Origin: Chthonomonadales bacterium
Lineage (GTDB): Bacteria > Armatimonadota > Chthonomonadetes > Chthonomonadales > CAJBBX01
Length of the DNA: 64,000 nt
Assembly: GCA_037443035.1 (NCBI GenBank)
Contig: JBBIPC010000007.1
Coordinates: 72,876 to 136,875 of the forward strand
Reading direction: 5' to 3'
In this document: piece after piece, positions 2,257 to 63,348 of the stretch
Layout of the letters: the number at the start of each line of letters is the position of its first letter
Numbering within the stretch: position 1 is the stretch's first letter
The notes under the pieces: model-generated
What the model saw: the letters and a program-made list of their open reading frames with translations, nothing else
Database searches by the model: none
What the model was told of the DNA's origin: nothing
Position numbers and translations under genes: made by a program

Positions 2257-4224
2257 ATGGAGATTGCCATGGCACTGCTTCTCGTCCCACTCGCGCTTGC
2301 AGCTGCGACTGCCACCGACCGACCTGCGCCACGCATCACCATGTACGTCTCGAAGCTCGGCGACAACACGACCGGTCGTACTTGGGCTACGGCGTTCCGA
2401 ACCATCCAAGCCGCCCTGGATGCGGTGCCTTCCGGCGGAGGATGCCGCATCGTCGTCCGGCCCGACACCTACATGGAGGCGAACTTGGCGCCAGCCCACC
2501 CTGGCATTGAAGGCGCCTACAACGAAATCATCGGCGATACGGAAGGTACGTTCGGTGGCGGCCGGGCTGGCCACGTCGTCATCGACTCCAGCGACCCGGC
2601 CAGGGGCTTCAAGAGCTATGACTGGTGGGGCACCATCCGAGCCACGACCAAAGGTTGGTCCCCTGAACACACGGAGGAGACCTTCTCCGCCATCGGCTGG
2701 GACCGGTGGATCCTCCGCAATCTCTACGCAACCGGCGGAGACGGTGGCCTCATGTTCGATTGCACCAACCGCGTGGAACCGTTCAGTGTCGTCGTCGAAG
2801 ATTGCACGAGCATCGGTCGCGCTTTCGGAGGTGGTGTGGCGAGCTGTCTCTCGCGGCCGACCGAGCCCATCGTCTTTCGGCGATGCAAGCTGTGGGCAAT
2901 GGACTGGTGGGGCGATACTGCTGCAGCCTACGTGCGCGTGGAAAACCCCGCCATGCCTTCCTCACCGGATGTTGTGTTCGAAGACTGCACCATGGTGAGT
3001 CCGCAATGCGCCCTCAAGGCCGGCAACTACGGCTTCCACACGTACTCGCGCGTAAGCGTGCGCCGGTGCAAGCTCATCGCTCTCAACTTCTCCCAACCGG
3101 CTGGTACGCCGACCGACGGCATCATCCAGAGCGTCCAGCATGGCAGGTATCTGCATGTCGAGCTGGAGGACAGCACGCTCATGGGCTACAAGGTTTTCGG
3201 CTCGGCAGTGGCCAAGGACTCCTCAGGCGACATCGGCTACACGGTGCGGGGGTCTGTCCGCGCCTATGTCCAGTTCCAGCAGGACGTGCCGGCAGGTATG
3301 CACCGGCTCGGTCACTGGCCAACGGAGATCTTCACCGATCTGACACCCCCATCCAAGCGAAGCTTCCCTGAGGCATCCTCCCGGGTTCCTCGTCCCTTGC
3401 GGGTCTCTCTGGTCCGCAAGGACATGTGTGAGGTTTCGCCTTTCATCTGGAAAGGCAAGCTCTGCCTACTGGAGTGTCACCGCCCAGCGGCAGGGGGAAA
3501 GAGGGAGAACTACTACCTAGTGATACGAGACGTGGACAGCGGCACGGAACTAGCCCGCTTCGGCGAGGGGTACAGCCTGGCTTCGGCCTTCGTGTGGCGA
3601 GGCAAGCTGCGGGTGTTCGCATCTCGGCTCGAGAACGACACCTGGAACGACGTGACCATGTTCACCACAGGCGACCTGCGCACCTGGACCCATCGAGTCG
3701 TCATACGCCAAGATCCCTCGGAGCATCTCTTCAACAGCTCCGTGTGCCGTGGCGTAGACGGGTTTGTCATGGCCTACGAAAGCAACAACCCGCGATGGCC
3801 GCCATTCACCGTGCGGTTCGCACGCTCCCGGGACCTCGAAACATGGGAGACGATACCCGACGCTTTGCTCGGCACCGACCGATACGCCGCGTGCCCCTGC
3901 ATCCGCCATGCAGACGGCTGGTACTACGTTCTCTACCTGGAACATCGGACGCCACGCTGGTACTTCGAAACCTATATCGCCCGTTCCAGAGACCTCGTAC
4001 ACTGGGAGTCGAGTGCCGGTAACCCCGTACTGGAACCGCTGGAACTGGAGGACGGCATCAACGCCTCGGACCCGGACATCGTTGAGTTCCGCGGTCAGAC
4101 GCTGTTGTATTACGCCATAGGAGACCAACTTACGTGGATAAATATCGAACGGGCGGACTATCGCATGCCGCTAAGACGATGGCTCGCAAGCTGGTTCCGG
4201 CAAGGTGGCATCGCCACCAAGTAG
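2257..4224 (+). CDS. Secreted two-domain protein: N-terminal right-handed beta-helix (pectate-lyase/DUF1565-like) fused to a C-terminal 5-bladed beta-propeller glycosidase-like domain (GH32/43/130-like)
   Basis: ORF 2218..4224. An internal ATG at 2257 gives MEIAMALLLVPLALAAATA (signal peptide). The N-terminus reads YVSKLGDNTTGRTWATAFRTIQAALDAV..GGCRIVVRPDTY, followed by repeated xxEDCT/RRCKL rungs. The C-terminus has repeated S(R)DLxxWxx blades (SRDLETWE, SRDLVHWE). Family assignment is from memory of motif patterns only. Confidence 0.6.
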   Translation: MEIAMALLLVPLALAAATATDRPAPRITMYVSKLGDNTTGRTWATAFRTIQAALDAVPSGGGCRIVVRPDTYMEANLAPAHPGIEGAYNEIIGDTEGTFGGGRAGHVVIDSSDPARGFKSYDWWGTIRATTKGWSPEHTEETFSAIGWDRWILRNLYATGGDGGLMFDCTNRVEPFSVVVEDCTSIGRAFGGGVASCLSRPTEPIVFRRCKLWAMDWWGDTAAAYVRVENPAMPSSPDVVFEDCTMVSPQCALKAGNYGFHTYSRVSVRRCKLIALNFSQPAGTPTDGIIQSVQHGRYLHVELEDSTLMGYKVFGSAVAKDSSGDIGYTVRGSVRAYVQFQQDVPAGMHRLGHWPTEIFTDLTPPSKRSFPEASSRVPRPLRVSLVRKDMCEVSPFIWKGKLCLLECHRPAAGGKRENYYLVIRDVDSGTELARFGEGYSLASAFVWRGKLRVFASRLENDTWNDVTMFTTGDLRTWTHRVVIRQDPSEHLFNSSVCRGVDGFVMAYESNNPRWPPFTVRFARSRDLETWETIPDALLGTDRYAACPCIRHADGWYYVLYLEHRTPRWYFETYIARSRDLVHWESSAGNPVLEPLELEDGINASDPDIVEFRGQTLLYYAIGDQLTWINIERADYRMPLRRWLASWFRQGGIATK

Positions 4225-4275
4225 GTCCGTCGGCCTTCTCCGGCGACAGATTCACGCTCCGGCCGCCTCTGGTGG

Positions 4276-4818
4276 TCAGAGTGTCTGCATCTTGCGATAG
4301 ACGACCAGGGGCGGTTCTCCCTCCAGGTCCTCCGGATGGTAGCGCGGGAAGGGATACTCGAGTTGGCGCACTTCGACGGGAGACACCTTGGGGTCAACTA
4401 GTCCAAGGGCCACAGCGACGCCGTAGATGATGGCCTCCGGGCGCGGTGGACATCCCGGTATGTAGAAGTCCACCGGCACCACCTTCTCCACGGGTCCCAG
4501 CACGTTGTAGGTGTCGAACCAGACCCCGCCTCCGCATGCACATGAACCGATGGCGAAGACGAGCTTGGGCGCGGGCATGGCCTCGTACGCTCGGCGTAAG
4601 GCCTTGCTCGTGGATCTCATGGCCGGTCCTTGGCAGAGCATGACATCCGCATGGCGCGGCGATGCCACGAGCCGTATCCCGAAGCGCTCCGCATCGTAGT
4701 AGGGCGTCAAGACGTCGAGGACCTCGATATCGCAGCCGTTGCAACCGCCGCTGTTCGCATGGTAGACCCAGAGGGACCGCCCGAACAGTTTCTTGCAGAG
4801 CCCCGCCAGTACGCTCAT
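4276..4818 (-). CDS. Group-4 [NiFe]-hydrogenase small subunit (NuoB/HycG-like)
   Basis: ORF 4276..4992. The conserved part starts at the ATG at 4818 (MSVLAGLCKK), 9 nt after the upstream TGA. Motifs: GGCNGCDIE, GSCACGGG, IPGCPPRPE (proximal 4Fe-4S ligands of the NuoB/HycG family). Confidence 0.85.
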   Translation of the reverse strand: MSVLAGLCKKLFGRSLWVYHANSGGCNGCDIEVLDVLTPYYDAERFGIRLVASPRHADVMLCQGPAMRSTSKALRRAYEAMPAPKLVFAIGSCACGGGVWFDTYNVLGPVEKVVPVDFYIPGCPPRPEAIIYGVAVALGLVDPKVSPVEVRQLEYPFPRYHPEDLEGEPPLVVYRKMQTL

Positions 4819-4826
4819 CCTTGCCC

Positions 4827-5351
4827 TCAGTCCAACTCGATGGGTATATCCTCGACCGGTGGAAAGCCCGGTAGGAACGTCTCGGCCCGGAAGATCCACC
4901 GCTCGCTGGCTACGTCGTCGAAGCGATACCCCTTCAGCTTCAGCGCCTCCAACGGTGATGGTTCGGGGAAACAACGGCCACAACGCTGGCATGCACCCAT
5001 GAACAGCTCCAGCCTTTGCCTCAAGTCACCGATACGCGGCGTCGCCGTCTCGAAGTCCCGGCTCATGGTGATGGCCTTCTCCGGGCACACTTCGGCGCAC
5101 CGACCGCAGTAAGTACATCTCCGACCCAGGTATTGCAGTATCCGGATCTCCTGGCAAACGTCTACCACGAGAATCTCCCGGGCCGGGCAGTTGTTCGCAC
5201 AGCCTGCACAACCGATGCAGCGGTTGGCATCGAAGATGGGGCGTCCCCGGAAACCCTCCGGCGTCGGTCGAGGAACGGCCGGATAGGGAAGCGTCACACG
5301 TCCCGCTTGCAGACAGATCACCGCTTCACGCACTTTGGAAAGTAGCGACAT
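4827..5351 (-). CDS. 4Fe-4S ferredoxin-type subunit (HycF/NuoI-like)
   Basis: ORF 4827..5489 with an internal ATG at 5351 (MSLLSKV), 11 nt after the upstream stop. Cys clusters: CIGCAGCANNCP, CTYCGRCAEVCP, and an extra CQRCGRC. Confidence 0.8.
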   Translation of the reverse strand: MSLLSKVREAVICLQAGRVTLPYPAVPRPTPEGFRGRPIFDANRCIGCAGCANNCPAREILVVDVCQEIRILQYLGRRCTYCGRCAEVCPEKAITMSRDFETATPRIGDLRQRLELFMGACQRCGRCFPEPSPLEALKLKGYRFDDVASERWIFRAETFLPGFPPVEDIPIELD

Positions 5352-5361
5352 TACCCGATCC

Positions 5362-6276
5362 TCAGTACCCCGCCACCGCCAGCACGAGCGCTGCCAGCGA
5401 CGCCGCCAATAGCGCCGAATAGCGCCCGAGAGCCTGGTCAATCCGGATGCGGGCGTGCACGGTTGCCAGGAGCGCCACACCCAGGACAACAGCCAGCACT
5501 TTCAGCCAGTGGATGGGCCACGCGTACACTGCAGCCAGGTCCGCCCCCCACGGCGCGAACAGCCCGATGAACAGGCTCGCATACACCACCAGCTTGGCCA
5601 TGGCAGCGTAACGCAGGAGCGCCAGCTTCGGACCGGAGTACTCCGCCAGGGGACCTTCCATGATCTCTGTCTCAGCCTCGGTTGTGTCGAACGGCTGCTT
5701 CTGAGCGTAAGCCTGCAAGCCCAGCACCATGACAATGAGCAACAGAATGCCGGACACCGTCACGCCTCCGCCCCCGTAGACGGACCCGTCCAGGAGTACC
5801 TGCAGACGGAGCGTGTGCGACTGGACGGCACCTACAAGAACAGCAAACGCGAACAACGGCTCCAGCACAACGACAGCCATCATCTCGCGGCTGACTCCCA
5901 CCATGGAGTACGGTGATCCCGCCGCGAGCCCTGCGAAGGCCGTGGTGGCTGCACAGAGCGTCAGAACGTAGAGCAGCAGGATGCCGTCGGCGTAGCGAGC
6001 CAGCGGCACTCCGAGACCCATGGGGGTCAAGCAGGCGGCTGTCAGGACGGACGCCAACGCAAGGATGGCCGAAGCTCGCTGCGCGGCCGGCACTTCGCCG
6101 CTCTCGATGTCCTCCTTCCCCAATAGCTTCAGGAGATCTACGTAGCTCTGCGTTATGGGCGGCCCCTGCCGCGAGTGGATGCGGGCGACCAACTTCCGCA
6201 TGAGGCCGTCCAGCAGGGGGGCCAACGCCATGACGGCCAGCACGTTGGCGAGGCTTCGTACGACCGCGTCTATCAT
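5362..6276 (-). CDS. Polytopic membrane subunit (HycD/NuoH-like)
   Basis: 304-aa hydrophobic ORF. The N-terminus ...LMRKLVARIHSRQGPP is typical of the NuoH/HycD family. ATGA start/stop overlap with the upstream large-subunit gene at 6273-6276. Confidence 0.8.
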   Translation of the reverse strand: MIDAVVRSLANVLAVMALAPLLDGLMRKLVARIHSRQGPPITQSYVDLLKLLGKEDIESGEVPAAQRASAILALASVLTAACLTPMGLGVPLARYADGILLLYVLTLCAATTAFAGLAAGSPYSMVGVSREMMAVVVLEPLFAFAVLVGAVQSHTLRLQVLLDGSVYGGGGVTVSGILLLIVMVLGLQAYAQKQPFDTTEAETEIMEGPLAEYSGPKLALLRYAAMAKLVVYASLFIGLFAPWGADLAAVYAWPIHWLKVLAVVLGVALLATVHARIRIDQALGRYSALLAASLAALVLAVAGY

Positions 6277-7952
6277 CTTCGCCTCCCGCTGTCCCCAGCC
6301 GTCGCCAGTTCCTCAGGCGTCCAGATACTCACATGGCCCGTTCGAAGATCTAGCGTCTCCATGCGGTCCGTACACGAGAAGCACGGGTCAATGCTCCCCA
6401 GCGAAATAGTCATGTCAGCCAGGCGCTGGTCCTTGATCATGGCAGGGACGCCCTGTAGATTCTGGTACGTGGGCGCACGTACGCGCCACCGCCGCGGCCG
6501 GTTGTTCTCGCCTGTGATGAGGAAGTGATGGCTCTCGCCTCGAGGCGCTTCCACCGACGAAAGGCCGAGGCGCCCTACTGGCAGCTCATCCGAGATAGGC
6601 GTCTGCAGCGGGCCAGGTTCTAGCCTGTCCAGACACTGCCGGATAATTCGGATGGACTGGAAGACCTCCTCTGTGCGCACGAGCACTCGGGACCAGACAT
6701 CGCACCCATCGTGGGTTACCACCTCCATCGCGACCCGGTCGTAGGCCGCATACGGATGGTCACGCCGCACATCCCGCGGAACACCTGCCGCCCGGGCCAC
6801 AGGTCCCACCAAGCCCATCTCCTTGACCAACTGCCTATCGGCGATTCCCACACCGCGCGTGCGCGCCATGAGGTTCCTATCGCCCGACACCGCTCGGGCG
6901 GCAGCCGTCCATTCCTTCTCGAGGGTATCCAGCACTCCGCGCAGATCCTCGGCCACTTCCGCCGTAATGTCGTGGCGCACACCACCGACTAGACACAGAC
7001 CGTAGGTCTTGCGGTTGCCGCAGATCCGTTCAGCTATCCACATGATCGGTTCGCGGATCCGGAAGCTCTGCATGAACAGCGTGTCGAACCCGACGATGTG
7101 GCACGCCAATCCGACCCACAGCAGGTGGCTGTGGAGGCGCTCGATCTCCAACATGACCGTACGGATGTACTCAGCGCGCTCAGGTGGCCGAATGCCCGTT
7201 GCGCTCTCCACGGCCTGGCAGTACGCTACGCTGTGAACGCATCCACAGATCCCGCAGATCCGCTCGGCCAAGAACGGGATGTCGTCGTAGCCCATGACCG
7301 ATTCGGCTAGTTTTTCGATTCCCCTATGGACCATGAACCCCCGATATTCGCACCCCCGCACCACTTCGCCGTCCACATAGAGACGGAAGTGGGCTGGCTC
7401 GTCCAGCGTGGGATGGAACGGACCGAACGGTATGACCGTGCAGCCCTCAGGCGGATCTCCGAAGGGGTAGACGGCGTCTTCGTCGTAGTCGTCGGGCATG
7501 TGATTCCATGGGACATCCTTCCGCAAGGGGTGGACGCCCTCTGGCCATCCGTCCGGCAAGATCAGCCGTTTGGGATACGAGTGGCCGACTGGTTCGATGC
7601 CCACCAGATCCCTGAACTCCCGCTCCGCCCAACCCGCTGCCGGTACCACGGGCGTGATGCTGGGCACCGTAGGATCCGCCTCCGGCACAGCAGCGAGCAC
7701 GCTGCACAGAATGTGATCGTCGTCGTAGGCGAAGTCATGGGCAACGAGAAACATGCCGGAATACGGCCGGTCATCGGCGCCGATGCTGATCACATAGCGA
7801 GCGTCCTGGTCGCGGAAGATGAACCGGCACACGTCACGCAGCAGCTCCCTGGGAACGTGAACGTAGAGGCGGTTGTCCGATGGAAGCTCGGCTCTAAGCG
7901 TGGCGGTGGGAAATCGCTCCCGCAAGGCGGCCAGACGTTCACGCGCTACCAT
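6273..7952 (-). CDS. Group-4 [NiFe]-hydrogenase large subunit, fused NuoC-NuoD-like (HycE-like)
   Basis: 559 aa. The N-terminal NuoC-like part contains GWAEREFRDLVGIEP. The NiFe-ligand motifs are intact: RICGICGCVHS (C233/C236) and DPCFSCTDR (C524/C527). A 29-aa C-terminal extension follows the Arg. Confidence 0.9.
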   Translation of the reverse strand: MVARERLAALRERFPTATLRAELPSDNRLYVHVPRELLRDVCRFIFRDQDARYVISIGADDRPYSGMFLVAHDFAYDDDHILCSVLAAVPEADPTVPSITPVVPAAGWAEREFRDLVGIEPVGHSYPKRLILPDGWPEGVHPLRKDVPWNHMPDDYDEDAVYPFGDPPEGCTVIPFGPFHPTLDEPAHFRLYVDGEVVRGCEYRGFMVHRGIEKLAESVMGYDDIPFLAERICGICGCVHSVAYCQAVESATGIRPPERAEYIRTVMLEIERLHSHLLWVGLACHIVGFDTLFMQSFRIREPIMWIAERICGNRKTYGLCLVGGVRHDITAEVAEDLRGVLDTLEKEWTAAARAVSGDRNLMARTRGVGIADRQLVKEMGLVGPVARAAGVPRDVRRDHPYAAYDRVAMEVVTHDGCDVWSRVLVRTEEVFQSIRIIRQCLDRLEPGPLQTPISDELPVGRLGLSSVEAPRGESHHFLITGENNRPRRWRVRAPTYQNLQGVPAMIKDQRLADMTISLGSIDPCFSCTDRMETLDLRTGHVSIWTPEELATAGDSGRRR

Positions 7953-9840
7953 GGCGCTTCCCTTCTTTCGCGTCTCCCCACGTCCGCTTCAGCTCCGAGT
8001 AGAAGCCGTGAGCCGTGTAGCGAATCTCGTCGCCTCCTGTCGCGTAGCCACACAACCAGGGCGCGTCGCGTCGTCGGTGCGCTCCGCCCAATCGGGAAAC
8101 GAACCACGCCATTAGGGCCATCGCCGCCAGTACCCCAAGAATCGCCAGCGGTGCGTAGCCGGCGCCGTCGGCGGCCAGGCGGACGCCGAAGCCGGGGCCG
8201 CGGCGTATGGCTGTCACTGTGGCCAAGAGTCCTCCGACTCCCTGATGGGTAGCTGCGACGGCGTTGCCCGCCAGCCACACCAAGAGCGCTGGGAAGATCC
8301 CCGTGATGACGCACAGCGCCGCCAGAGCAAGTTGCGGAACCCGCATGAGCCACCCCACCTCGATCTTGCCACGCTCCCTGACTTGCGCTTCGACGACAGC
8401 GCTGCTCTGCCCAAGGAAACTTGTACCGAAGAACTTGACGAACGATGCCAGGGTGAGAGCACTCGTCATGAGCGCCAGGGCCGCGCAAATGGCCATGTAG
8501 GGTGCTGCAGGACTTGCGCGGAGGGCCGCCACGTAGACCATCCACTTGCTGACGAAGCCGTTGAGCAACGGAAAGCCCGCAATGGCCATGCTGGCTGTCA
8601 GGGCGGTCCAGGCGGTCAATGGCATGTGCCGCCACAATCCGCCCATGCGGTTGAGGTCCTGTGTACCGGTCGCGTCTAGCATGGATCCCGCATTGAGGAA
8701 AAGCAACGCTTTGAATACGCCGTGGTTGAACGAATGGAGCAGGGCAGCCATGAGCGCCAGGGCTGCGATCTGCCAAAGCTCCGGGTTGTCAGTCGCCACG
8801 AGCACCATGCACGTGCCGCAGGCCAACAGAATGTAGCCGGCTTGGCCGATGCTGTGGAATGCCAGTAAGCGCTTCGTGTAGTCCTGCCGCAGGGCGGCGG
8901 TGGTGCCAGTTACCATGGTCACCGTGCCAATGACCGCGATGATTCCGCCCCATGTGCCGAAGCCGAAGTCGGTCCGAGCGCTCGACGGCACGAGGCACAG
9001 GAAGTAGCGAAGCAGACCGTACACACCGGTCTTGATCATCACGCCTGAAAGCACCGCGCTGACCGGCGAAGGGGCCGCTGGATGGGCTTCCGGCAACCAG
9101 ATGGCGCCGAATGGCCACATACCCGTCTTCACTCCGAAACCGACCAGGAACAGACCGAACGCCAGCGCCGCTAGCGCCGGTCGCTCGTTCAGCAGCATGG
9201 GTATGCCGGCGGTTACTGCGTCGAAACTGTACTTCAGCTCGCCTGTGGAAGCGTGGCGGGCGGCAGCCTGCGCCAGTATCTCACCGCCGATCATCGTCGC
9301 GGCGCACCCTAGCTGCATCATGAGCAGGAAGCGGTTCGCGGCTCGGACGTTTTCTGGGCGACGGTACTCGAAGCGGATGAGGAGATACCCAGGGATGGTC
9401 ATCATCTGCCAGAAGATGAAGAGGAACCACATCATGTCCGTCGTGCTGACCAGCCCGTACATGGCCGCAACGAAGAACAACAGGTGGGGGTAATAGTGAC
9501 CCACGCCGTAGGACGCGAACCGACCCATGTGGGCGATGGAATGGAGTGCCGCAGGTACGGCAATGACAACGGCGAGCACAAGGAAGATGGCGGTCAACCC
9601 GTCCACGCTCACGAAGAGGGAGAATCCGAGCCGGGGGGCAGCTAGCAATCGCTCCGGCTTGCCAGATGGACCGTGGGCCAGGACTTCCATGGCGGCTGTC
9701 ATCACCAGCGCGGCTGTTGCCAGCACAATGAGGAACGCGAACCACCCCGCCACGACACGCCACCGGCTCAACGGAACGGAAATCAGCGATCCAACCACGG
9801 CGGCAACAATGGCGATGAGCACGAGACGCTCAGGAGTCAT
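7939..9840 (-). CDS. Antiporter-like membrane subunit (HycC/HyfB/NuoL-like)
   Basis: ORF 7939..9861, where the track start is GTG. The ATG at 9840 is preceded by GGAGGAG with a 6-nt spacer. About 630 aa, many TM helices, NuoL/Mrp-type motifs (WLPEAHPAAPSPVSA). Confidence 0.8.
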   Translation of the reverse strand: MTPERLVLIAIVAAVVGSLISVPLSRWRVVAGWFAFLIVLATAALVMTAAMEVLAHGPSGKPERLLAAPRLGFSLFVSVDGLTAIFLVLAVVIAVPAALHSIAHMGRFASYGVGHYYPHLLFFVAAMYGLVSTTDMMWFLFIFWQMMTIPGYLLIRFEYRRPENVRAANRFLLMMQLGCAATMIGGEILAQAAARHASTGELKYSFDAVTAGIPMLLNERPALAALAFGLFLVGFGVKTGMWPFGAIWLPEAHPAAPSPVSAVLSGVMIKTGVYGLLRYFLCLVPSSARTDFGFGTWGGIIAVIGTVTMVTGTTAALRQDYTKRLLAFHSIGQAGYILLACGTCMVLVATDNPELWQIAALALMAALLHSFNHGVFKALLFLNAGSMLDATGTQDLNRMGGLWRHMPLTAWTALTASMAIAGFPLLNGFVSKWMVYVAALRASPAAPYMAICAALALMTSALTLASFVKFFGTSFLGQSSAVVEAQVRERGKIEVGWLMRVPQLALAALCVITGIFPALLVWLAGNAVAATHQGVGGLLATVTAIRRGPGFGVRLAADGAGYAPLAILGVLAAMALMAWFVSRLGGAHRRRDAPWLCGYATGGDEIRYTAHGFYSELKRTWGDAKEGKRHGSA

Positions 9841-10330
9841 GCCCCGCTCCTCCGCCGTCACCTCGTCCCAAGAGCTGGATCAGGACTGGCGCCAAATGCT
9901 CCAGGGCAGTCTGCACTTCCTCGCTCAGGCAAGCTCCAGGCAGTGTCTCCGCAGGCTGGACGCCTAGAAGCCACACGCGGGACGTGGAGTATCGTTCCAG
10001 AGCCTCTGCCAGCACCCCTAACGCCATGCGGTGCGTGGAGACTTGCGGGAAGCGAGATCGCATGCCCGCCGAATCGAATAGCATGACCGTTCCGGGCGCC
10101 TGGCCGGCCTCCACTGCATCCAGGAGGATCACGCTGTCCATTTCCCGAGCGCACATCAGGCAGCGCTCTGGCCAGAGTCCTCCGACCACCACGCGCGGCA
10201 CGCCTGCATGTTTCAGCGTCTCCGCGAGCACGACGCCGAAGCCGTCATCGCCGAAGAGGGGATTGCCAAGCCCCAGGACAGCCGTCCGTCCTCTGCAGCA
10301 ATCCGCCAGCGACGCCGCCAGCCCGTCCAT
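9830..10330 (-). CDS. Hydrogenase maturation endopeptidase (HycI/HyaD family)
   Basis: ORF 9830..10438. The ATG at 10330 forms an ATGA overlap with the upstream stop. Motifs: VLGLGNPLFGDDGFG and LLDAV...STHRM, typical of the hydrogenase C-terminal processing protease. Confidence 0.8.
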   Translation of the reverse strand: MDGLAASLADCCRGRTAVLGLGNPLFGDDGFGVVLAETLKHAGVPRVVVGGLWPERCLMCAREMDSVILLDAVEAGQAPGTVMLFDSAGMRSRFPQVSTHRMALGVLAEALERYSTSRVWLLGVQPAETLPGACLSEEVQTALEHLAPVLIQLLGRGDGGGAGHDS

Positions 10331-11178
10331 CAGATATCCTCTCCCAACATGCGCAACTGCTCGTAGGTGAAGACGGGGCCGTCCACACAGACATAGGCAA
10401 CGCCGATGCAGCAGTGGCCGCACTTGCCTACGCCGCACTTCATGTACCGCTCCATGGTGGAGACGATCCTATCCTCCCGGTACCCCATGGCGAGCAGATC
10501 CTTGATGACGAACCGGAACATGACAGGCGGACCGCAAACGAAGGCAATGCTGTTGTCCACAGCCACTCGAACATCCGGCCGCTTGAACAGGCTTCCAACG
10601 ACACCCACCGGACCGCTCCAACTCTCATCGCCCCGGTCCACGGTCAGGTGGCACTCGACCCCTCCCTGCTCGGCCCAACCGCGCATCTCCGTTTGGTACA
10701 TGAGTTCCGCTGGCGTTCGTGCGCCGTAGAACACCTGAATCGTGCCGTACTGCTCGCGCCGATGCATGGCGTAGACAATGCACGATCGGAGCGGGATCAT
10801 GCCGATGCCGCCCGCCACGAAAACGAGATTCATGCCGGCGTATTCGTCCATGGGAAAACCGTTGCCATAGGGACCACGAACGCCGAAGCAATCGCCGGGC
10901 TGGAGGCTGTGCAGAGCCGATGTACAGCTGCCCACGCGCCTGACCGTGAAGAAGCGCTCCTTCTCCGTAGGGCTGGGTGGGAGCGATAGCGGGAACTCGC
11001 CCGCGCCGATGATCGAGACCTGGGCGAACTGCCCTGGCCGGAACCGGGAGAAAGCAACATCATCCGCCGGGTCCACGAAACGCCAGTAGAAACTGCGCAC
11101 CTCGCGGATCTCGTCCTGAACCCGCTCGAGAACCGCCACACGGGGGATGTAGATGTTCGTCTCGTCAGGCTGCTGCAT
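10330..11178 (-). CDS. FAD/NAD(P)-binding 2Fe-2S oxidoreductase subunit (AsrB / sulfhydrogenase gamma HydG / PyrK-like)
   Basis: ORF 10330..11193 (track start is TTG); first ATG at 11178. Motifs: GEFPLSL (RPFS-like FAD site), VAGGIGMIPL (NAD(P) site), and C-terminal CGVGKCGHCC...CVDGP (2Fe-2S). Confidence 0.75.
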   Translation of the reverse strand: MQQPDETNIYIPRVAVLERVQDEIREVRSFYWRFVDPADDVAFSRFRPGQFAQVSIIGAGEFPLSLPPSPTEKERFFTVRRVGSCTSALHSLQPGDCFGVRGPYGNGFPMDEYAGMNLVFVAGGIGMIPLRSCIVYAMHRREQYGTIQVFYGARTPAELMYQTEMRGWAEQGGVECHLTVDRGDESWSGPVGVVGSLFKRPDVRVAVDNSIAFVCGPPVMFRFVIKDLLAMGYREDRIVSTMERYMKCGVGKCGHCCIGVAYVCVDGPVFTYEQLRMLGEDI

Positions 11179-12247
11179 GAGCCTCTTCCCCAACGGAGCC
11201 TCGCCGGATCATCTCCACGACCGTCGGCATGCCAATCTCGCCATGACAGACAGCTGCGCACCGTCCGCATCCCACGCATGCAACGCTCAGCTCCCGTTGC
11301 ACGAAGTAGTGGGAGAGCTTGCGGAAGAAACGCCTGTTGCGCCGATCATGGACAGCTTTCCTGGGATTGAACCCGCCTGCCATCCGCGTGAACCCCGCCA
11401 GTGCGCAGGAGTCCCACACTCGGACACGTTCGTAGGTGTCTGGTCCTGTTAGACGGTCCGTTACCGTGAAGCACGTGCATGCGGGACAGACGAACGTGCA
11501 TCCACCGCATTCCAGACACCGATTGCCGATCTCCTCCCACGTCTCCTCGCTTACCTTTCCCGCCGAAACGCCCCGCACAGCGCCAGCGAACCAGCTTGTT
11601 CGGTGGAAGAAGCTCCTCCGCGCATTGGCAAGCGCGAGCCGGCGCGCAGCTACGTCCTCCGGCGTAGCCTTGCGGAAGATCGTCGAAGCGAAGAGAGCTT
11701 CGCCTGCCGGAGTACCTGCGACTGCCAGGTACCGGTCGCCAAGAGCGACCAGTTGCAGATCGAAACCACTTCTTGCCGCAGGTCCCGTGTCCGTACAGAC
11801 GCAGAAGCAGTCTGGCCCGATGTCCACGCCGGGCACGGTACAGGCGACGTTCACAAGGAACAGCCCCTGCCGCAGACGGTGGTAGTAGATGTCCCGATAC
11901 TCCCGATCCAGATAGAACCTATCGAGGTGTCCGATGCCAGCCACGTCACACGATCGAATGCCAAACACCGCCAGTCGCTGCTCGGCCACCGTCGGTTCGA
12001 TGCGCATGCCCTCCGACGTTCGTTGCAATGTCATGATCCGCTGGATGTGAGGTAGGACGAACCGCTTGGGCGGATAGAGCGGGTTGGGCAGGTGGAGTGT
12101 CGCCGCATGGCGGTTGGCCTCGTTGACGACATCGAAGCATGTATCCGATCCGTGGATGCGGAACGGCGCCACCACCGCGTACCCCTTCTCGCGGAGCAGA
12201 TCGATGATGCAGAGCACGTCTTCGGCCGCAATGATGCGCGCTTTCAC
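11165..12247 (-). CDS. 4Fe-4S subunit (AsrA / sulfhydrogenase beta HydB-like)
   Basis: ORF 11165..12397. The likely start is the GTG at 12247, which forms a GTGA overlap with the upstream stop (VKARIIAAED...). Motifs: CLECGGCTFVCPACTCF and CVGCGRCAAVCHGEI. Confidence 0.7.
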   Translation of the reverse strand: MKARIIAAEDVLCIIDLLREKGYAVVAPFRIHGSDTCFDVVNEANRHAATLHLPNPLYPPKRFVLPHIQRIMTLQRTSEGMRIEPTVAEQRLAVFGIRSCDVAGIGHLDRFYLDREYRDIYYHRLRQGLFLVNVACTVPGVDIGPDCFCVCTDTGPAARSGFDLQLVALGDRYLAVAGTPAGEALFASTIFRKATPEDVAARRLALANARRSFFHRTSWFAGAVRGVSAGKVSEETWEEIGNRCLECGGCTFVCPACTCFTVTDRLTGPDTYERVRVWDSCALAGFTRMAGGFNPRKAVHDRRNRRFFRKLSHYFVQRELSVACVGCGRCAAVCHGEIGMPTVVEMIRRGSVGEEAHAAA

Positions 12248-14271
12248 GGGCGAATCCTCTCGATCCGCACAGGCACATACGGGGACCCGTTCGCTGCATG
12301 GCCCCGGATGGCCTGATCCACGTTCTTGACGAAGAAGGGAGCGAACACTGCACCCCGTCGCACCTCGTCCGTCACACGAGCCGCGATCTCCACACAACCT
12401 CCCGCCGAGCAGACACGAATAGTTTCGCCGTCCCGCACCGACAGTTCTCGCGCGTCCTCCGTGTTCACCTCCACGAACCCCTCGGGATAGTCGAGCAGGA
12501 GGATGCGGTACTCACGCTTCAGCGTCTCGCTGTGCTGGATCAGCACGTTCTTGTGCCAGTAGTAGTTGGAATAGCCGAACACCAGGGTCAGCGGGAACTC
12601 GGCGCTGCGTGGCACAGGGACGGGAGGCCGCACAGGCTGCAGACGGAATGGATGTTGCTCGCCAGAACCGTCTGCGAACAGCCTGGGCGTTCCGACGGGC
12701 CGCTGCCAGGTGCACGGCCATTGCACCCCGAAGTCCCTCCGGAGATTGTCGTAGCTGGCCGCTTCGTAGAACGGAACAGCTTGGCCGATCTCTGCCATGA
12801 CATCCGCCGGACCATCGTATTCCCACTCTGCGCCGAGGGCGCGTGCCACTCGGACAATGTGCCTCCAGGCTGGCTCCGTCGCACCAGGCGCCGCTGCAAC
12901 CTTCTCTGCAACCTGGATGCGCCGGTCCGTGCTGGTGAAGGTGACGGTCTCCTCACCGAAGGCAGTGGTGGGCAGGATGACGTCAGCGAAGGCGGCTGTT
13001 TCCGTCATGAACAGGTGCTGGACCACGATGAACTCGCATTGCTGGAGAGCCCAGGCCGCGTCGCCGAAGAAGGCCGTGCTGGCGGGATCGTAACGACCCA
13101 GCCACAGTCCCCGAATCGCACCGTTGCCCAGACCGCCCAGTACTTCGCGCGCCGACAGCCCGACCTCCCGCGGAAGCTCCGCCTGCCATAGACTGCCCAG
13201 CCGGGCCGACGCCTCTTCATCGGTGACGCGCCTATAGCCCGGCAGCATGTCGGGCAGCATGCCCATGTCGCAGACGCCTTGGAGGTTGTTATGTTCGGTC
13301 AGCGCATAGACACCCGCGCCTGGACGGCCGATCTGCCCGGTCAGCAGAGCGAGGTTGACAGCGGCCCGAATGGTTTCCTCGTGGCGCGCCTCCAATCCCG
13401 TCGAATAGACCAGGGAGGCTGCCTGCGCCTCGGCGTACAGCGTAGCCGCTTCCTCCAGCGCTTCTGGCGGTACGCCACATTCCTCGGCAGCCGTCAATAA
13501 GTCGAAGTGCTCGGTGGCGGAGAGGAATGCGTCGAACCCACCGCACCGGCTCTTCAGGAAGCTGCGGTCCTCCAGCCCACGGTCGATAATGACCCTGGCC
13601 ATGGCACCGTACAGCGTGGCTTCCGTCCCAGGGCGGATCTGGAGGAAAACGTCGGCGTGGCCCGCCAGACGATGCCGGCGAGAATCCACCACAATGAGTC
13701 GTGCACCGTCCAGCTTGGCGCGTAGGACAATGCCTGCCACCGTCGGCAACTGCCGCGCCAGGTCCACCCCGTCCACGAGAATCACGTCGCTCAGACTCAA
13801 GTCGCCAATCGGGTTCGTCGTGGCTGGTACGCCGAGCATGTCCAGGAGCACGTTGATGGAGTTGTGGACATACACTCCGGTCCCGTGGTCCACATTGTTG
13901 GTGCCCACCACGGCGCGCGCCAGCTTCTGGAGCAGATATGCTTCCTCGTTGGAACATCGGGGCGAGTCGAGGAATGCCACCGCCTGCGGACCATGCTGCA
14001 TCACGATCGCTCGAAGCCGCTCGGCGATCAGCTCCACCGCCTCGTCCCACGTCGCTTCCTCGAAGCCCCTCGAACGCCGGATGAGAGGGTGGAGCAACCT
14101 GTCGGGCGAACCGGAGACCTCGTGAACATGCCAGCCACGCAGGCAGATCCTTCCCCGGTTCGTGGGATGGGACAAGCTGGGATAGGCACCGCTTACGCGC
14201 CCTTCGGCGGTCTCGAGATACAGACCGCATCCCACCCCGCAGAAGGTGCATGTGGTAAGTTGGTGCGGCAT
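12244..14271 (-). CDS. FdhF-like molybdopterin-oxidoreductase-family subunit (formate dehydrogenase H homolog) with non-canonical active-site residues
   Basis: 675 aa. The N-terminal 4Fe-4S motif is CTFCGVGCGLY...ICLRG. Collinear with E. coli FdhF as recalled (ARAVVGTNNVD..., NNLQGVCDMGMLP, FIVVQHLFMTETAAFADVILP). The Sec/Cys-His and Arg positions are replaced; see findings. Confidence 0.8.
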   Translation of the reverse strand: MPHQLTTCTFCGVGCGLYLETAEGRVSGAYPSLSHPTNRGRICLRGWHVHEVSGSPDRLLHPLIRRSRGFEEATWDEAVELIAERLRAIVMQHGPQAVAFLDSPRCSNEEAYLLQKLARAVVGTNNVDHGTGVYVHNSINVLLDMLGVPATTNPIGDLSLSDVILVDGVDLARQLPTVAGIVLRAKLDGARLIVVDSRRHRLAGHADVFLQIRPGTEATLYGAMARVIIDRGLEDRSFLKSRCGGFDAFLSATEHFDLLTAAEECGVPPEALEEAATLYAEAQAASLVYSTGLEARHEETIRAAVNLALLTGQIGRPGAGVYALTEHNNLQGVCDMGMLPDMLPGYRRVTDEEASARLGSLWQAELPREVGLSAREVLGGLGNGAIRGLWLGRYDPASTAFFGDAAWALQQCEFIVVQHLFMTETAAFADVILPTTAFGEETVTFTSTDRRIQVAEKVAAAPGATEPAWRHIVRVARALGAEWEYDGPADVMAEIGQAVPFYEAASYDNLRRDFGVQWPCTWQRPVGTPRLFADGSGEQHPFRLQPVRPPVPVPRSAEFPLTLVFGYSNYYWHKNVLIQHSETLKREYRILLLDYPEGFVEVNTEDARELSVRDGETIRVCSAGGCVEIAARVTDEVRRGAVFAPFFVKNVDQAIRGHAANGSPYVPVRIERIRP

Positions 14272-14307
14272 GGCGCCCGCCTTCGCGATCGTGGCCCCGA
14301 AGCCTCT

Positions 14308-14793
14308 CTACCAGGAGCGCACGTGCCGCTCGACAAGCTTCTGACGGACCGCCTGGAGCCGTTGCTCCAACAGTGTCGCGAACCGCTGCAGGAGCATGTA
14401 GCCTAGGCTTGGGTCCTTCTCGCACCGCTCCCGCAGAGCAGGACCGTCGAGGACCAATAGGCGTGTCCTGCGCGCCGCCCGAGCGTCCAGACGCCAACGG
14501 TACGGCGGCACGAGCACCGACCAACCGAAGGCATCGCCATCCTCTAGTTCCTGCACGGTCGTGGGCCCGTACTGCAGGTTGAAAGCCTCCAGTACAACTG
14601 CGCCTTCGAGGATCAGGTAGAACCTGTCCGCCTGCTCCCCCTCCCGAAAGATCACTTGACCTGCGTCCAGCGTCGTTTCGGTCGACAGCGACAATAGCGC
14701 CTGAGCACAGTCCGCTGGCAGATCGGCGAATAGCGGGTGGCCAGCCAGGACTTCGCCAGAAGACCGCGTCGCAGGTGTGTGTTGCACTGCCAT
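14308..14793 (-). CDS. Stand-alone cyclic-nucleotide-binding (cNMP) domain protein, no HTH
   Basis: ORF 14308..14865. The ATG at 14793 is preceded by AGGAGG (14806-14801). Contains the CAP/cNMP beta-roll pattern HPLFADLP...GQVIFREGEQADRFYLILEGAV...GDAFGW. At about 161 aa it ends in a helix with no DNA-binding domain. Confidence 0.75.
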   Translation of the reverse strand: MAVQHTPATRSSGEVLAGHPLFADLPADCAQALLSLSTETTLDAGQVIFREGEQADRFYLILEGAVVLEAFNLQYGPTTVQELEDGDAFGWSVLVPPYRWRLDARAARRTRLLVLDGPALRERCEKDPSLGYMLLQRFATLLEQRLQAVRQKLVERHVRSW

Positions 14794-14836
14794 TGCACAA
14801 CCTCCTACTGCTCGGCCAGTCTTGCACCGTGCCCTT

Positions 14837-14865
14837 ATGTTATCACGCTGCAGCCGAGAATACAA
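14837..14865 (-). promoter_or_regulatory. Candidate sigma70-type promoter for the cNMP gene / hydrogenase operon
   Basis: Minus-strand reading: TTGTAT (14865-14860), 17-nt spacer, TGaTAACAT (extended -10, 14845-14837). It lies about 45 nt upstream of the ATG at 14793. Confidence 0.35.
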
Positions 14866-14957
14866 GAGGTTCGACGGCAGATTGTGGGTTTTTTCTCAGA
14901 ATGTTGCCGCATGAGATGAGCCGAGACGCATGTATCGAAGCGGTCGGACACATTACT

Positions 14958-14973
14958 CGTGAACATAGTCACA
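14958..14973. promoter_or_regulatory. CRP/FNR-family-like palindrome cGTGA-N6-TCACa
   Basis: The sequence cgtgaacatagtcaca matches TGTGA-N6-TCACA at 9 of 10 half-site positions. It is AT-rich in a GC-rich intergenic region, upstream of the cNMP gene and the hydrogenase operon. Confidence 0.3.
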
Positions 14974-15026
14974 GATAGCAGCGACAGCAGTTCGCCACCC
15001 ACTTACTGCTGGGACGCTCGCGAAAG

Positions 15027-15872
15027 CTACACGGCTGATGGCTTGGCAAGATGCTGACGTGTGGCAGCGCGGGACCCCTCTTCGCGGGTCGTCCACCACT
15101 CCTCGTCCTGCACGGACCGCACAATGATGTCCCGTACTGCCTCGGGTGAGTCGCTAACCGCCATCAGGTCCATGTCGTGCGGCGAGATCTTTCCCTCGGC
15201 TGCCAGAGTGGCGCGCATCCAGTCCAGCATGCCCTGCCAGTAAGCCGAGCTGAAGAGCACGACGGGGAAGTTGCGTATCTTGCCTGTCTGAATAAGCACC
15301 AGCGCCTCCAGCAGCTCATCGAGCGTGCCGAAGCCTCCGGGGAAGATGACGAACGCACAGGCGTACTTCACGAACATCATCTTCCGCACGAAGAAGTAGC
15401 GGAACTCCACTGCCGTGTCGGTGTAGGGATTCAGGTGCTGCTCGAACGGCAGCTCGATATTCAGACCGACCGATCGCGCGCCGGCAAGGTGGGCTCCTTT
15501 GTTTCCAGCCTCCATGATGCCCGGGCCGCCTCCCGTGATGATGCTGAAGCCTGCCTCCCCCAACAGCCTGGCGGTCTCGACTGCCGCGCCGTACATGGGA
15601 TCCGTCTCGCTTACCCTTGCGCTGCCAAAGATCGTCACGGCCATGCCGAGATCCGCTAGCGCGTCGAAGCCGGCGACGAACTCCCCCATGATGCGCAGGA
15701 CCCGCCAGGGGTCCGATTGCGTGAACAGCTCCGGAGTATGGCGCCGGACATTGATGAGCCGCTCATCCTCGGTGACGCTGGTAGTACGGGGACGACGGGT
15801 GACAGGCGGGCGAATGGCAGCCGAATGGTTCGCGCCGGAGATGACGTGCTTTTCAGACACGGGCTTCCTCAC
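15027..15872 (-). CDS. LOG-family (TIGR00730) Rossmann-fold nucleotide-binding protein
   Basis: Motifs: TIFGSARV, ITGGGPGIMEAGNKGA, PGGFGTLDELLEAL. The GTG start forms a GTGA overlap with the upstream stop at 15869-15872. Confidence 0.8.
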   Translation of the reverse strand: MRKPVSEKHVISGANHSAAIRPPVTRRPRTTSVTEDERLINVRRHTPELFTQSDPWRVLRIMGEFVAGFDALADLGMAVTIFGSARVSETDPMYGAAVETARLLGEAGFSIITGGGPGIMEAGNKGAHLAGARSVGLNIELPFEQHLNPYTDTAVEFRYFFVRKMMFVKYACAFVIFPGGFGTLDELLEALVLIQTGKIRNFPVVLFSSAYWQGMLDWMRATLAAEGKISPHDMDLMAVSDSPEAVRDIIVRSVQDEEWWTTREEGSRAATRQHLAKPSAV

Positions 15873-17806: not shown

Positions 17807-17835
17807 GTGTATCACCTCTCTCTTCCGGCGCGACG

Positions 17836-19695
17836 CTAGCCGATTCGCAGAACGCTGAGAAACGCTTCCTGTGGTATCTCCACGCTGCCGATCTGCTTCA
17901 TCCGCTTTTTCCCTTCCTTCTGCTTCTCGAGCAGCTTCCGCTTTCTCGTGATGTCGCCGCCATAGCACTTGGCGGTTACGTTCTTCCGAAATGGTCGCAC
18001 CGACTCGGCGGCGATGATCTTGCCACCTATGGCCGCCTGTATACGTACTTCGAACTGCTGGCGCGGCACGACCTCCTTCATTTTCTCCACGAGGGCCCTC
18101 GCACGCTGATACGCCTTGTCGCGATGAGTGATCAGCGACAGCGCATCCACCATCTCGCCGTTCACCAACACGTCCAGCTTGATGAGCTTTCCTTCGCGGT
18201 AGCCTATCGGTTCATAGTCGAAGGATGCGTAGCCCCGCGTACGGCTCTTGAGCTGATCATAGAAATCCAACAGAATCTCCGCCAACGGGAGCCTGTAGTG
18301 CAGCAGCACCCTGTCGCGGTACTGCTCGGCCTCGTTGGCGGGTGGACCGGTAGCAGTGCCCACTCTGGCGTGGGTGATATGCTCCATGCGCACGAACTCG
18401 CCACGTCTCTCCCTGGCCAGCTCCATGATGGCCCCAACGAATGCCGACGGTACGAAGATCGTCGCGTCCACGTACGGCTCTTCGATGGAATGAATGCGGG
18501 CAGGGTCCGGAAATCGAGCCGGATTGTCCACTTCCACAGTCGTGCCATCGGTAAGGTGAACCCGAAACACCACCGACGGCGATGTGGCGATGAGCCGAAG
18601 ACCGAACTCCCGTTCGAGTCGTTCTTGGATGATCTCCATGTGGAGTAGGCCCAGGAATCCACACCGGTAGCCGAATCCTAGGGCGGCGGATGTTTCCGGT
18701 TCGAAGGAAAGGGCCGCATCGTTGAGTTGGAGCTTCTCCAGAGCCTCTCGAAGGTCAGGGTAGTCCTTGCTGTCTATCGGATAGAGGCCGCAGAACACCA
18801 TGGGTTTGGCCTTCCGATAGCCAGGCAGCGGCTGCGACGCGGGATGCTGGGCTGTCGTGATCGTGTCTCCGACGTTCGCATCGCCGATGGTCTTGATCCC
18901 GGCAGTGAGAAAGCCCACTTCTCCCGTGCGGAGGACTTCCGTCTGCTCCATGCGCGGTCTGAAGATCCCGACGGTACTGACTTCGAAATCCCGCCCGGTG
19001 GACATGAAACGGATGCGCATGCCGGGCTTAACGTAGCCGTCTACCACACGGATGTAGCACACGACGCCGAGATAGCTGTCGAAGTGGCTATCGAAAACAA
19101 GCGCCCGTAGCGGGCCTGTGGGATCGCCCGATGGCGGCGGTATTCTCTGGACGACCTGCTCGAGGACCTCTCGGGTGCCGATGCCCTGCTTGGCACTGGC
19201 AAGCACGGCATCGTGAGCCTCGACGGCAAGGATATTCTCGATATCCTCACGCACTCGCTCTGGATCGGCCGCCGGCAGGTCCACCTTGTTGATGACAGGA
19301 ATGATGGTCAACCCATTGTTGTAGGCAAGGTTGACATTGGCAACGGTCTGAGCTTCGACGCCCTGAGCTGCATCCACCACCAGCACGGCTCCCTCGCAAG
19401 CCGCCAGCGATCGGGACACTTCGTAGGTGAAGTCCACGTGGCCAGGGGTGTCAATGAGGTTCAGCTCGTACTCCTGACCATCCAGCGCCGTGTAGTTGAG
19501 TCGTACGGCCGTCATCTTGATCGTGATGCCACGCTCCCGCTCGATGTCCATGGTATCCAGGAGCTGGTCCTGCATCTCCCGCTCGTCGATGGCGCCCGTC
19601 AGTTCGAGGATACGGTCGGCGAGCGTGGACTTGCCATGGTCCACGTGGGCAATGATGCAGAAGTTCCGTATATGGGACTGCGAACGGGCTTCCAT
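17836..19695 (-). CDS. lepA: Elongation factor 4 (LepA)
   Basis: ORF 17836..19839 with an internal ATG at 19695. Contains [30 protein letters not shown] (G1), DTPGHVDF (G3), and the LepA-specific C-terminus ...[21 protein letters not shown]. Confidence 0.95.
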
Positions 19696-30771: not shown

Positions 30772-30856
30772 ATGTTCGTCCTCCTCCCGACCCTTTGCTA
30801 TCTTGCATCTCGACGCGACAAGCAACTCCAGCCTTCAGAACATGCTCGCCGCGGAC

Positions 30857-35747: not shown

Positions 35748-35817
35748 ACTGGGACCCCCCGATTGAATCGTAAGACGACACAGGCACCTGCCCGCACGGG
35801 GCAAGCTCGCCCGCTAG

Positions 35818-49516: not shown

Positions 49517-49542
49517 CGCCACCGGCCGTTCTGTGCGCACCG

Positions 49543-63272: not shown

Positions 63273-63348
63273 TGTGATCCACCTGACCTCTTTCGATCGC
63301 GCGCCGGCGCATCCGATATCCTCAGGCGCTCTACGGAGTGCGAATCTC

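Follow-up and report, generated by a model that had tools for sequence, protein, structure and literature searches.

A conserved operon linking a formate hydrogenlyase-like [NiFe]-hydrogenase core to a sulfhydrogenase-like NAD(P)H module and a formate dehydrogenase-like subunit without the catalytic triad

Here we describe a nine-gene hydrogenase operon in a 64,000-nucleotide stretch of contig JBBIPC010000007.1 (assembly GCA_037443035.1, positions 72,876 to 136,875) from an uncultured Chthonomonadales bacterium of the Armatimonadota; this whole stretch is called the window, and all positions are counted within it. Nine consecutive genes on the minus strand span 14271-4276, and Pfam and NCBIfam assignments bore out the gene content, order and span given in a preliminary description of the same DNA. 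The first gene, fdhL (12244..14271), encodes a 675-residue molybdopterin-family subunit resembling formate dehydrogenase (FDH), as judged from Pfam, NCBIfam and alignment to solved FDHs. It is followed by hydB (11165..12247, 360 aa, GTG start), for an Fe-S subunit similar to AsrA and to the beta subunit of Pyrococcus furiosus soluble sulfhydrogenase I (SHI), assigned by its match to 9nez_B and by NCBIfam. Next comes hydG (10330..11178, 282 aa), for a flavin adenine dinucleotide (FAD)-NAD(P)-[2Fe-2S] subunit similar to SHI gamma and AsrB, assigned by its match to 9nez_C and by Pfam. A HycI-type large-subunit C-terminal endopeptidase (9830..10330, 166 aa; Pfam HycI, TIGR00072) separates these three genes from a single antiporter-like membrane subunit of HyfB/HycC/NuoL type (hyfB, 7939..9840, 633 aa; Proton_antipo_M, HyfB and Protein Data Bank (PDB) matches). 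The remaining genes encode a fused NuoC-NuoD, HycE-type [NiFe] large subunit (hycE, 6273..7952, 559 aa; alignment to 7z0s_E), a HycD/NuoH-like membrane anchor (hycD, 5362..6276, 304 aa; Pfam NADHdh 2.2e-49), a HycF/NuoI-like 2x[4Fe-4S] subunit (hycF, 4827..5351, 174 aa; 7z0s_F, 8e-20) and a HycG/NuoB-like small subunit (hycG, 4276..4818, 180 aa; Pfam Oxidored_q6 1e-31).

The genes are tightly coupled, as had been proposed, with overlaps or gaps of at most 10 nt at every junction. Two of the three overlaps previously described as ATGA or GTGA were recovered, GTGA between fdhL and hydB (12244-12247) and ATGA between hycE and hycD (6273-6276), whereas the third, between hydG and hycI, reads TGATG, so that the two genes share a single nucleotide (10330) and not the four of an ATGA. 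The other junctions are 14-nt overlaps between hydB and hydG (11165-11178) and between hyfB and hycE (7939-7952), an 11-nt overlap between hycI and hyfB (9830-9840), and gaps of 10 nt (hycD/hycF) and 8 nt (hycF/hycG). The mechanical open reading frames start too far upstream for four of the genes, and we corrected these starts to GTG 12247 for the HydB-like subunit and to ATG at 10330 (HycI), 5351 (HycF) and 4818 (HycG). A promoter and terminator scan of 4000-15200 gave counts equal to the shuffled expectation. In agreement with the preliminary description, a HycB-type four-cluster ferredoxin linking FdhF to HycF is absent from the nine genes, and it is also absent from the related loci described below.

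The predicted hydrogenase core is a formate hydrogenlyase (FHL)-like, HycE-type [NiFe] enzyme consisting of HycE, HycG and HycF, consistent with the group-4 core recognized earlier. The large subunit combines the Pfam domains Complex1_30kDa, NiFeSe_Hases and Complex1_49kDa. It aligns over its full length (residues 4-541) with E. coli HycE (7z0s_E, E 1.7e-135), and the second-best structure match is P. furiosus MbhL (6e-69). Both CxxC motifs are present, with the Ni-Fe ligands in RICGICG (C233/C236) and DPCFSCTDR (C524/C527), and these are invariant in 81 sequences. A tail of about 30 residues follows DPCFSCTDR and is predicted to be cleaved off by the operon's own HycI-type protease (Pfam 3.5e-12; TIGR00072 97.5 bits against a cut-off of 47.45). 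HycG has the proximal [4Fe-4S] ligands C26/C29/C93/C123, and HycF, with Fer4 domains of the NuoI/HycF type, has eight Cys for two [4Fe-4S] clusters. All Ni-Fe and Fe-S ligand cysteines of the complex, as well as the FAD and NAD(P) motifs, are invariant among the 67-81 family members counted. HycF also contains an additional invariant CxxCxxC (C121/C124/C127) at its C-terminus, residues 121-127. In E. coli HycF, the equivalent region holds a Cys-quartet single-metal site that contacts HycB and FdhF (PMC9474812). In the window protein, the CxxCxxC that replaces this quartet may be a docking or extra-cluster site for the beta-like subunit.

The subunit set is that of a group 4 [NiFe]-hydrogenase: a large subunit with RxCGxC and DPCxxC, a NuoB-like subunit with the proximal cluster only, and NuoI-like, NuoH-like and antiporter-like subunits. 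The nearest solved large-subunit structure is HycE, a group 4a enzyme. Group 4f (Ehf), raised in the preliminary description, is less likely judging by published accounts, which describe it either as seven-gene ehf sets (Methylocystis) or as lacking the Ni-Fe ligands (Margulisbacteria); neither account fits the window.

The membrane arm is of the minimal HycC plus HycD type. The antiporter-like subunit matches Proton_antipo_M (1e-47) and HyfB (1e-112), has PDB matches to MbhH, MrpA and HycC, and ends in an ND3-like C-terminal extension. It retains Lys238 in transmembrane helix (TM) 7, His253 in TM8 and Lys377 in TM12. The TM5 Glu, otherwise strictly conserved in the antiporter-like subunits NuoL/M/N, Mrp and Mbh, is replaced by Gln145, which is conserved in 67 of 71 family members. 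E. coli HycC presents the converse case, with the TM5 Glu kept and the TM7 Lys lost (Leu208, Glu135, Glu391).

The preliminary description had assigned the second and third genes to a group-3b-type beta/gamma module, and this is supported. The beta-like subunit matches Fer4_22 (1e-27) and the sulfhyd_HydB/ShyB family (1e-43) and is also close to AsrA; its sole significant PDB match is SHI beta (9nez_B, 5e-39), and it has 16 invariant Cys. The gamma-like subunit contains NAD_binding_1 and DHODB_Fe-S_bind domains, matches HydG/ShyC (4e-63) and is also close to AsrB. Its match to SHI gamma (9nez_C, 5e-60) is far above those to NqrF and PyrK. The nucleotide-binding motifs GGIGxxP and CGPP are conserved in this subunit, as is the Cx4Cx2C...C [2Fe-2S] motif (C248/C253/C256/C264). 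NCBIfam scores lie below the equivalog cut-offs for both proteins, which are best described as predicted homologues, not orthologues, of the sulfhydrogenase subunits. Pfam and NCBIfam detected no group-3b alpha or delta gene and no AsrC gene in the operon; the partners of the pair are instead the group-4 subunits.

FdhL matches Pfam Molybdopterin (9.6e-52) and the FDH alpha-subunit model TIGR01591 (9e-164), the latter with 546 bits against a cut-off of 666. The nearest solved FDH is FdhF of the T. kivui hydrogen-dependent CO2 reductase (7qv7_S, 5.6e-122), and we aligned FdhL with this protein and with the further FDH alpha subunits 9t1s_L (F420-FDH) and 7bkb_D. The N-terminal [4Fe-4S] motif is intact, with C8/C11/C15/C43 invariant. 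At the active site, the segment NVDH-CARL-C/U-H-APTV of the solved FDHs has become NVDH-GTGV-Y-V-HNSI, and PLRGQNNVQG has become ALTEHNNLQG. The equivalents of Sec/Cys140, His141 and Arg333 are thus Tyr134, Val135 and Thr325. Tyr134 is found in 121/121 database homologues and in 59 of the 61 locus-derived sequences, with Phe in the other two, while Thr325 is found in 119/121 database homologues. Position 135 varies, with Cys in 76% of sequences and G, S, V, T, A, R or H in the rest, and for this reason it cannot hold an essential ligand. Cys135 was considered as a shifted Mo ligand and rejected, as the position is variable and there is no compensating pattern at 136.

The changes in FdhL extend well beyond these three positions. 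Among the 222 columns identical across the three solved FDHs, 137 (62%) are retained and 85 are lost. The motifs GxNxxxxHP, DPR, QD, TGR and HYH are rewritten to GVDLARQLP, DSR, QH, FG[H/Y] and YYW, respectively, and EKDG is likewise lost in the FdhL family; we take these six motifs to be binding signatures of the molybdenum-bis(pyranopterin guanine dinucleotide) (Mo-bisPGD) cofactor. Many of the lost columns now hold residues that are invariant within the family, with Glu326, Asn328/329, Asp170, Arg393, Tyr571 and Trp572 replacing residues universal in FDHs. Because the triad is replaced family-wide and several Mo-bisPGD motifs are rewritten, the Fdh-like subunit does not appear to be a formate dehydrogenase, and formate hydrogenlyase function is unlikely. 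The suggestion in the preliminary description that the enzyme could be formate-linked is therefore not upheld. The absence of the triad and of the cofactor motifs speaks for a structural or electron-storage relic like NuoG, whereas a former active site so strongly conserved in a family-specific manner speaks for a new function. FdhL would be either such a relic or a site repurposed for a third substrate.

An exhaustive search of 1.84 billion cluster representatives showed the FdhL family to comprise a handful of 50%-identity clusters, and its nearest neighbours also lack the triad. Canonical C-H...R proteins start at approximately 34-39% identity and account for 67 of the top 150 representatives. 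Approximately 20 independent clusters among these 150 nearest representatives encode proteins of 670-900 aa with Tyr at the Cys/Sec position. This pattern suggests that FDH-like proteins whose active site is "Tyr-type" or degenerate form a much larger radiation, so far unexplored. Public names given to the FdhL homologues range from "molybdopterin-dependent oxidoreductase" (from the Prokaryotic Genome Annotation Pipeline) to "formate dehydrogenase major subunit" (from the Joint Genome Institute, JGI).

The operon is widely distributed. Metagenomic homologues of the large subunit number in the thousands, at 72-77% identity, and a scan of one genome per GTDB species with this subunit as query found at least 117 relatives, the best 80 of which were analyzed. 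These 80 are all metagenome-assembled genomes, with 68-77% identity, and belong to the Verrucomicrobiota, Acidobacteriota, Nitrospirota, Methylomirabilota, Thermodesulfobacteriota, Planctomycetota, Lentisphaerota, Omnitrophota and Armatimonadota (Chthonomonadaceae), with peat, fen, groundwater and soil as frequent sources. The nine-gene synteny recurs in the same order in every related locus with sufficient flank, giving 57 non-duplicate complete loci in at least nine phyla. Because of this recurrence, the arrangement is far beyond what chance would give.

The subunits have also diverged together. Over 46 loci, the pairwise-identity matrices of the eight structural subunits correlate with Spearman coefficients of 0.45-0.88; the lowest values involve HycF and HycG, and the other six subunits give 0.74-0.88. 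The Fdh-like, beta-like and gamma-like proteins correlate with HycE, HycD and HyfB at 0.74-0.85, compared with 0.76-0.88 for those core subunits among themselves, which indicates that this module has co-diverged with the core. Overlapping junctions and universal synteny contradict the idea that the AsrAB-like genes form a separate unit. The term "chimeric" had been applied to this operon; rather than a one-off chimera, it is a conserved, mobile, self-contained and co-inherited unit.

The surroundings of the 57 loci are less uniform than the unit itself. No flanking gene, including any for hydrogenase maturation (hyp), transport or regulation, is common to more than six of them; hypA follows the operon in five. 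Their recurrent flank clusters include no formate channel gene, and no other donor module was found at the related loci. The number of antiporter-like genes varies from 0 to 1 or 2 in otherwise identical operons. Four loci of Verrucomicrobiota (L020, L043, L047 and L053) have no antiporter-like gene between hycI and hycE, and the two with full flanks (L020 and L053) have none within 10 kb either. Some Verrucomicrobiota have two antiporter-like genes. In L001 two Proton_antipo_M genes are adjacent, and eight other loci (L009, L013, L027, L028, L030, L060, L065 and L067) have an extra gap of approximately 2 kb before hycE that is consistent with a second copy.

Among characterized enzymes, the core is closest to E. 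coli FHL-1 (FdhF-HycBCDEFG, Hyd-3; 7Z0S/7Z0T; HydDB group 4a). Both have a fused HycE-type subunit, HycG, HycF and HycD, a single antiporter-like subunit with an ND3-like C-terminal fusion, a HycI protease and a co-encoded FDH-family subunit. Unlike FHL-1, the window operon has two SHI-beta/gamma-like genes in place of HycB, its FDH-family subunit has no Sec/Cys-His-Arg, and its HycF differs in the Cys-rich region discussed above. For the beta/gamma pair, P. furiosus SHI (group 3b; 9NEZ/9NF0) provides the best and almost the only PDB matches, with the Cys, FAD/NAD(P) and [2Fe-2S] motifs kept. In SHI, however, the pair joins a cytoplasmic 3b alpha/delta, whereas in the window it joins a membrane-bound group-4 core and an Fdh-like protein.

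The analogy to the modular logic of complex I (NuoEFG + NuoBCDHI plus antiporter-like subunits), raised in the preliminary description, is also supported. Shared elements are a nicotinamide flavoprotein module, a dead FDH-like subunit (the C-terminal domain of NuoG in complex I) and homologues of NuoB/C/D/H/I/L. In contrast to complex I, the window flavoprotein is of the FNR/PyrK type, which uses FAD, and not NuoEF, which uses flavin mononucleotide; there are no NuoE or NuoF homologues, and the membrane arm is minimal. The acceptor in the window enzyme is likely H+ and not quinone, since the NuoD homologue keeps the Ni-Fe ligands. T. onnurineus Fdh3, an NADP-dependent FDH, likewise combines an FDH alpha subunit with Fe-S proteins and an NAD(P)-binding flavoprotein (PMC8965080). 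It was rejected as a model because Cys-His-Arg is present in Fdh3A, the model of its NAD(P) subunit is based on NfnI and not on SHI-gamma, and the enzyme is soluble and has no hydrogenase (PMC8965080).

Similar gene clusters have been noted before, and the earlier suggestion that the operon type may be undescribed is not upheld. An "enigmatic" group-4 cluster of Saganbacteria RX5A contains asrA, asrB, cooF and an unclassifiable molybdopterin oxidoreductase, and was read as "an oxidoreductase module" (Matheus Carnevali et al., Nat Commun 2019, PMC6349859). As in the window, a group-4 hydrogenase is combined there with a non-FDH molybdopterin oxidoreductase and both asr genes, and the nearest relatives of that cluster include Omnitrophica, a phylum also found in the window family. 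By description, on which this comparison is based, the Saganbacteria cluster differs in having cooF and Mrp-type antiporter subunits. A 2026 in-silico study reported that, within a "group 4b" subclade, roughly half of the Fdh proteins have no Cys/Sec ligand and that the clusters encoding these carry SHI-beta/gamma homologues; its authors proposed, from AlphaFold 3 models, a three-branched Fe-S network with possible bifurcation or confurcation involving an unidentified substrate (PMC13582414). These clusters resemble the window operon in placing a Cys/Sec-less Fdh-like protein and SHI-beta/gamma beside a HycE-related group-4 hydrogenase, and their phyla (Acidobacteriota, Armatimonadota, Methylomirabilota and Desulfobacterota) overlap those of the window family. 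A typical cluster there has a HyfE-like subunit with multiple antiporter subunits and ferredoxins (12 proteins in the modelled example), whereas the window operon, again compared by description, is compact, with one antiporter-like subunit, no HyfE-like subunit and one NuoI-like ferredoxin. Group-4 clusters with an FDH gene in peat acidobacteria have been read as formate hydrogenlyases, of group 4a (PMC6018796) or group 4b (PMC9599518). The architecture is therefore already in the literature in silico (2019; 2026, Front Microbiol). In the literature searched we found no biochemistry on it, no characterized member and no well-characterized subgroup with identical gene content.

We propose that the nine genes specify a single membrane complex of eight subunits together with the protease that matures it. 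The complex would act as a reversible NAD(P)H:H+ oxidoreductase, seated on a minimal membrane arm that resembles that of complex I. We give this reading a probability of roughly 55% as a whole, which covers how the subunits assemble, the path of the electrons, the use of NAD(P)H, the direction of the reaction and the coupling to ions. In this complex, the place of the HycB connector and an active FdhF would be taken by the SHI-beta/gamma-like pair and the Fdh-like subunit. Electrons from NAD(P)H would enter at the FAD and [2Fe-2S] cluster of the gamma-like subunit and pass to the [4Fe-4S] clusters of the beta-like subunit. From there they would travel through the two HycF clusters and the HycG proximal cluster to the Ni-Fe site to produce H2, and the same path could run in reverse. 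HycF and HycG would fill the topological role of the three-cluster delta subunit of SHI, and the [4Fe-4S] cluster of FdhL would form a side branch off the beta-like subunit. The whole chain would sit on HycD and one antiporter-like subunit. The AlphaFold 3 study of related clusters arrived at a similar architecture (PMC13582414).

At low H2 partial pressure, as in anoxic peat and soil, the proposed enzyme would vent reductant from NAD(P)H in the form of H2 and might translocate ions in doing so. By standard potentials, reduction of protons by NAD(P)H is uphill at 1 bar H2 and turns slightly exergonic once H2 falls to the pascal range, as is usual in anoxic peat. Under high H2, or with the membrane potential as driving force, the reaction would go in reverse.

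Several points weigh against this interpretation. Co-transcription is no proof of a single complex, and the members of the family are known from genes alone. The predicted use of NAD(P)H covers NADH and NADPH alike. Ion pumping is uncertain, since the TM5 Glu is replaced and four Verrucomicrobiota loci are without an antiporter-like gene. Finally, the conserved former FDH active site (Tyr134, Glu326 and Asn328/329) suggests that FdhL has a specific task, which a two-substrate model leaves unexplained.

In a rival reading, FdhL keeps a pterin or other cofactor and turns over a third substrate, with an Fe-S network joining H+/H2, NAD(P)+/NAD(P)H and that substrate in a three-terminal confurcating or bifurcating hydrogenase. 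Such an enzyme is rather unlikely. Strong purifying selection specific to this family acts on the former active site, a pattern that resembles neofunctionalization and not decay, and the AlphaFold 3 model of a related cluster has an Fe-S network branching to the large subunit, the SHI-gamma homologue and the Fdh-like protein (PMC13582414). However, a bifurcating flavin site is not evident, as the gamma-like subunit is of the FNR/PyrK type with a single FAD, and Pfam and NCBIfam found no NfnB, HdrA, EtfAB or NuoF-type subunit among the nine genes. The Mo-bisPGD motifs GxNxxxxHP, DPR, TGR and HYH are rewritten, and the genes flanking the 57 loci offer no clue to a substrate. We suggest, quite tentatively, that FdhL could be a repurposed catalytic subunit of such an H2/NAD(P)H/third-substrate hydrogenase, in which Tyr134 would either replace the Sec/Cys ligand of a Mo/W-bisPGD or line a new pocket. 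Put differently, and with the same reserve, the complex could be a living intermediate between FHL and complex I that lost formate chemistry and recruited a nicotinamide module.

A genuine formate hydrogenlyase, converting formate to CO2 and H2 with NAD(P)+ as an optional extra acceptor, is very improbable. The first gene is indeed most similar to real FDH alpha subunits in both structure and TIGR01591 matches, the core is nearest to E. coli Hyd-3, some JGI names of the homologues point to FDH, and the acidobacterial peat clusters annotated as FHL (PMC6018796, PMC9599518) are similar, a likeness drawn from their descriptions. Against this, the equivalents of Sec/Cys140, His141 and Arg333 are Tyr, a variable residue (Val in the window) and Thr throughout the family, the TIGR01591 score falls short of its cut-off, HycB is missing and the recurrent flank clusters of the 57 loci hold no formate channel gene. 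Similarly improbable is a reading as two separate enzymes that only share a transcript, one a soluble Fdh-like/beta/gamma oxidoreductase, the other an Ech/Hyc-like hydrogenase that depends on ferredoxin. In its favour, the beta/gamma pair is soluble elsewhere (SHI, AsrAB), hycI lies between the two halves and even E. coli FdhF is bound only loosely (PMC9474812), but the order is universal with overlapping junctions across both halves, the halves co-diverge as tightly as the core subunits do mutually, the core would otherwise have no dedicated electron-input subunit, and neither half occurs alone in the 80 related loci, a sample selected by large subunit from which stand-alone Fdh-like/beta/gamma units could escape.

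Outside the conserved unit, a gene for a cNMP (cyclic nucleotide monophosphate)-binding-domain protein (14308..14865, minus strand; Pfam cNMP_binding 1.5e-13) lies 36 nt upstream of the operon. This was its single Pfam match, and no DNA-binding domain was detected. Among the related loci, the gene is shared only with the Chthonomonadaceae locus L018 (L018:2988-3455), at 52% identity, and the protein may be a lineage-specific regulator. No hyp genes were found among open reading frames of at least 180 aa across the 64 kb, a size limit that small genes such as hypA and hypC would escape. Between the operon and lepA are genes for a DUF6785/DUF6784 protein (E 1e-140), a LOG-family protein (Lysine_decarbox) and a DUF4838 protein (20788-22716 and 15027-17968, minus strand), and these are not conserved beside the operon elsewhere. 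The LepA protein shares 86-87% identity with proteins from Chthonomonadales metagenome-assembled genomes and 75% with Chthonomonas calidirosea, which, like the shared cNMP-binding gene, fits the placement of the window in this order.

The window also contains a very large type IV pilus or type II secretion system (T2SS)-like cluster at 28981-63368 on the minus strand. It includes a secretin (28981-30825), an STN-domain protein, PilM (34473-35804), a prepilin peptidase (57703-58755), T2SSF (58841-60091) and two T2SSE ATPases (60134-61375 and 61482-63368). Two pseudopilins with N-methyl motifs are unusually long, at 687 and 327 aa. Three giant open reading frames of 2797, 1688 and 1007 aa (36010-44403, 44513-49579 and 49543-52566, minus strand) have almost no Pfam matches.

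The interest of the operon lies in the enzyme class and its probable systematic mis-annotation, to which the window adds one uncultured Chthonomonadales member. This operon type is probably often misread as formate hydrogenlyase. If our reading is correct, scoring similar clusters as FHL in carbon-cycle metagenomics (e.g., PMC6018796, PMC9599518), whose membership in this family is judged by description, would misassign formate and H2 fluxes. The enzyme would repeat the modular logic of complex I with protons in the role of acceptor, and the proposed descent of complex I from an FHL-like ancestor would become open to test in an extant enzyme. It would also represent a "proton respiration" of a simple kind, in which NAD(P)H is the donor. 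For the bacteria of anoxic peat, soil and groundwater, this would mean a widespread membrane enzyme that gives the NAD(P)H pool a direct connection to H2.

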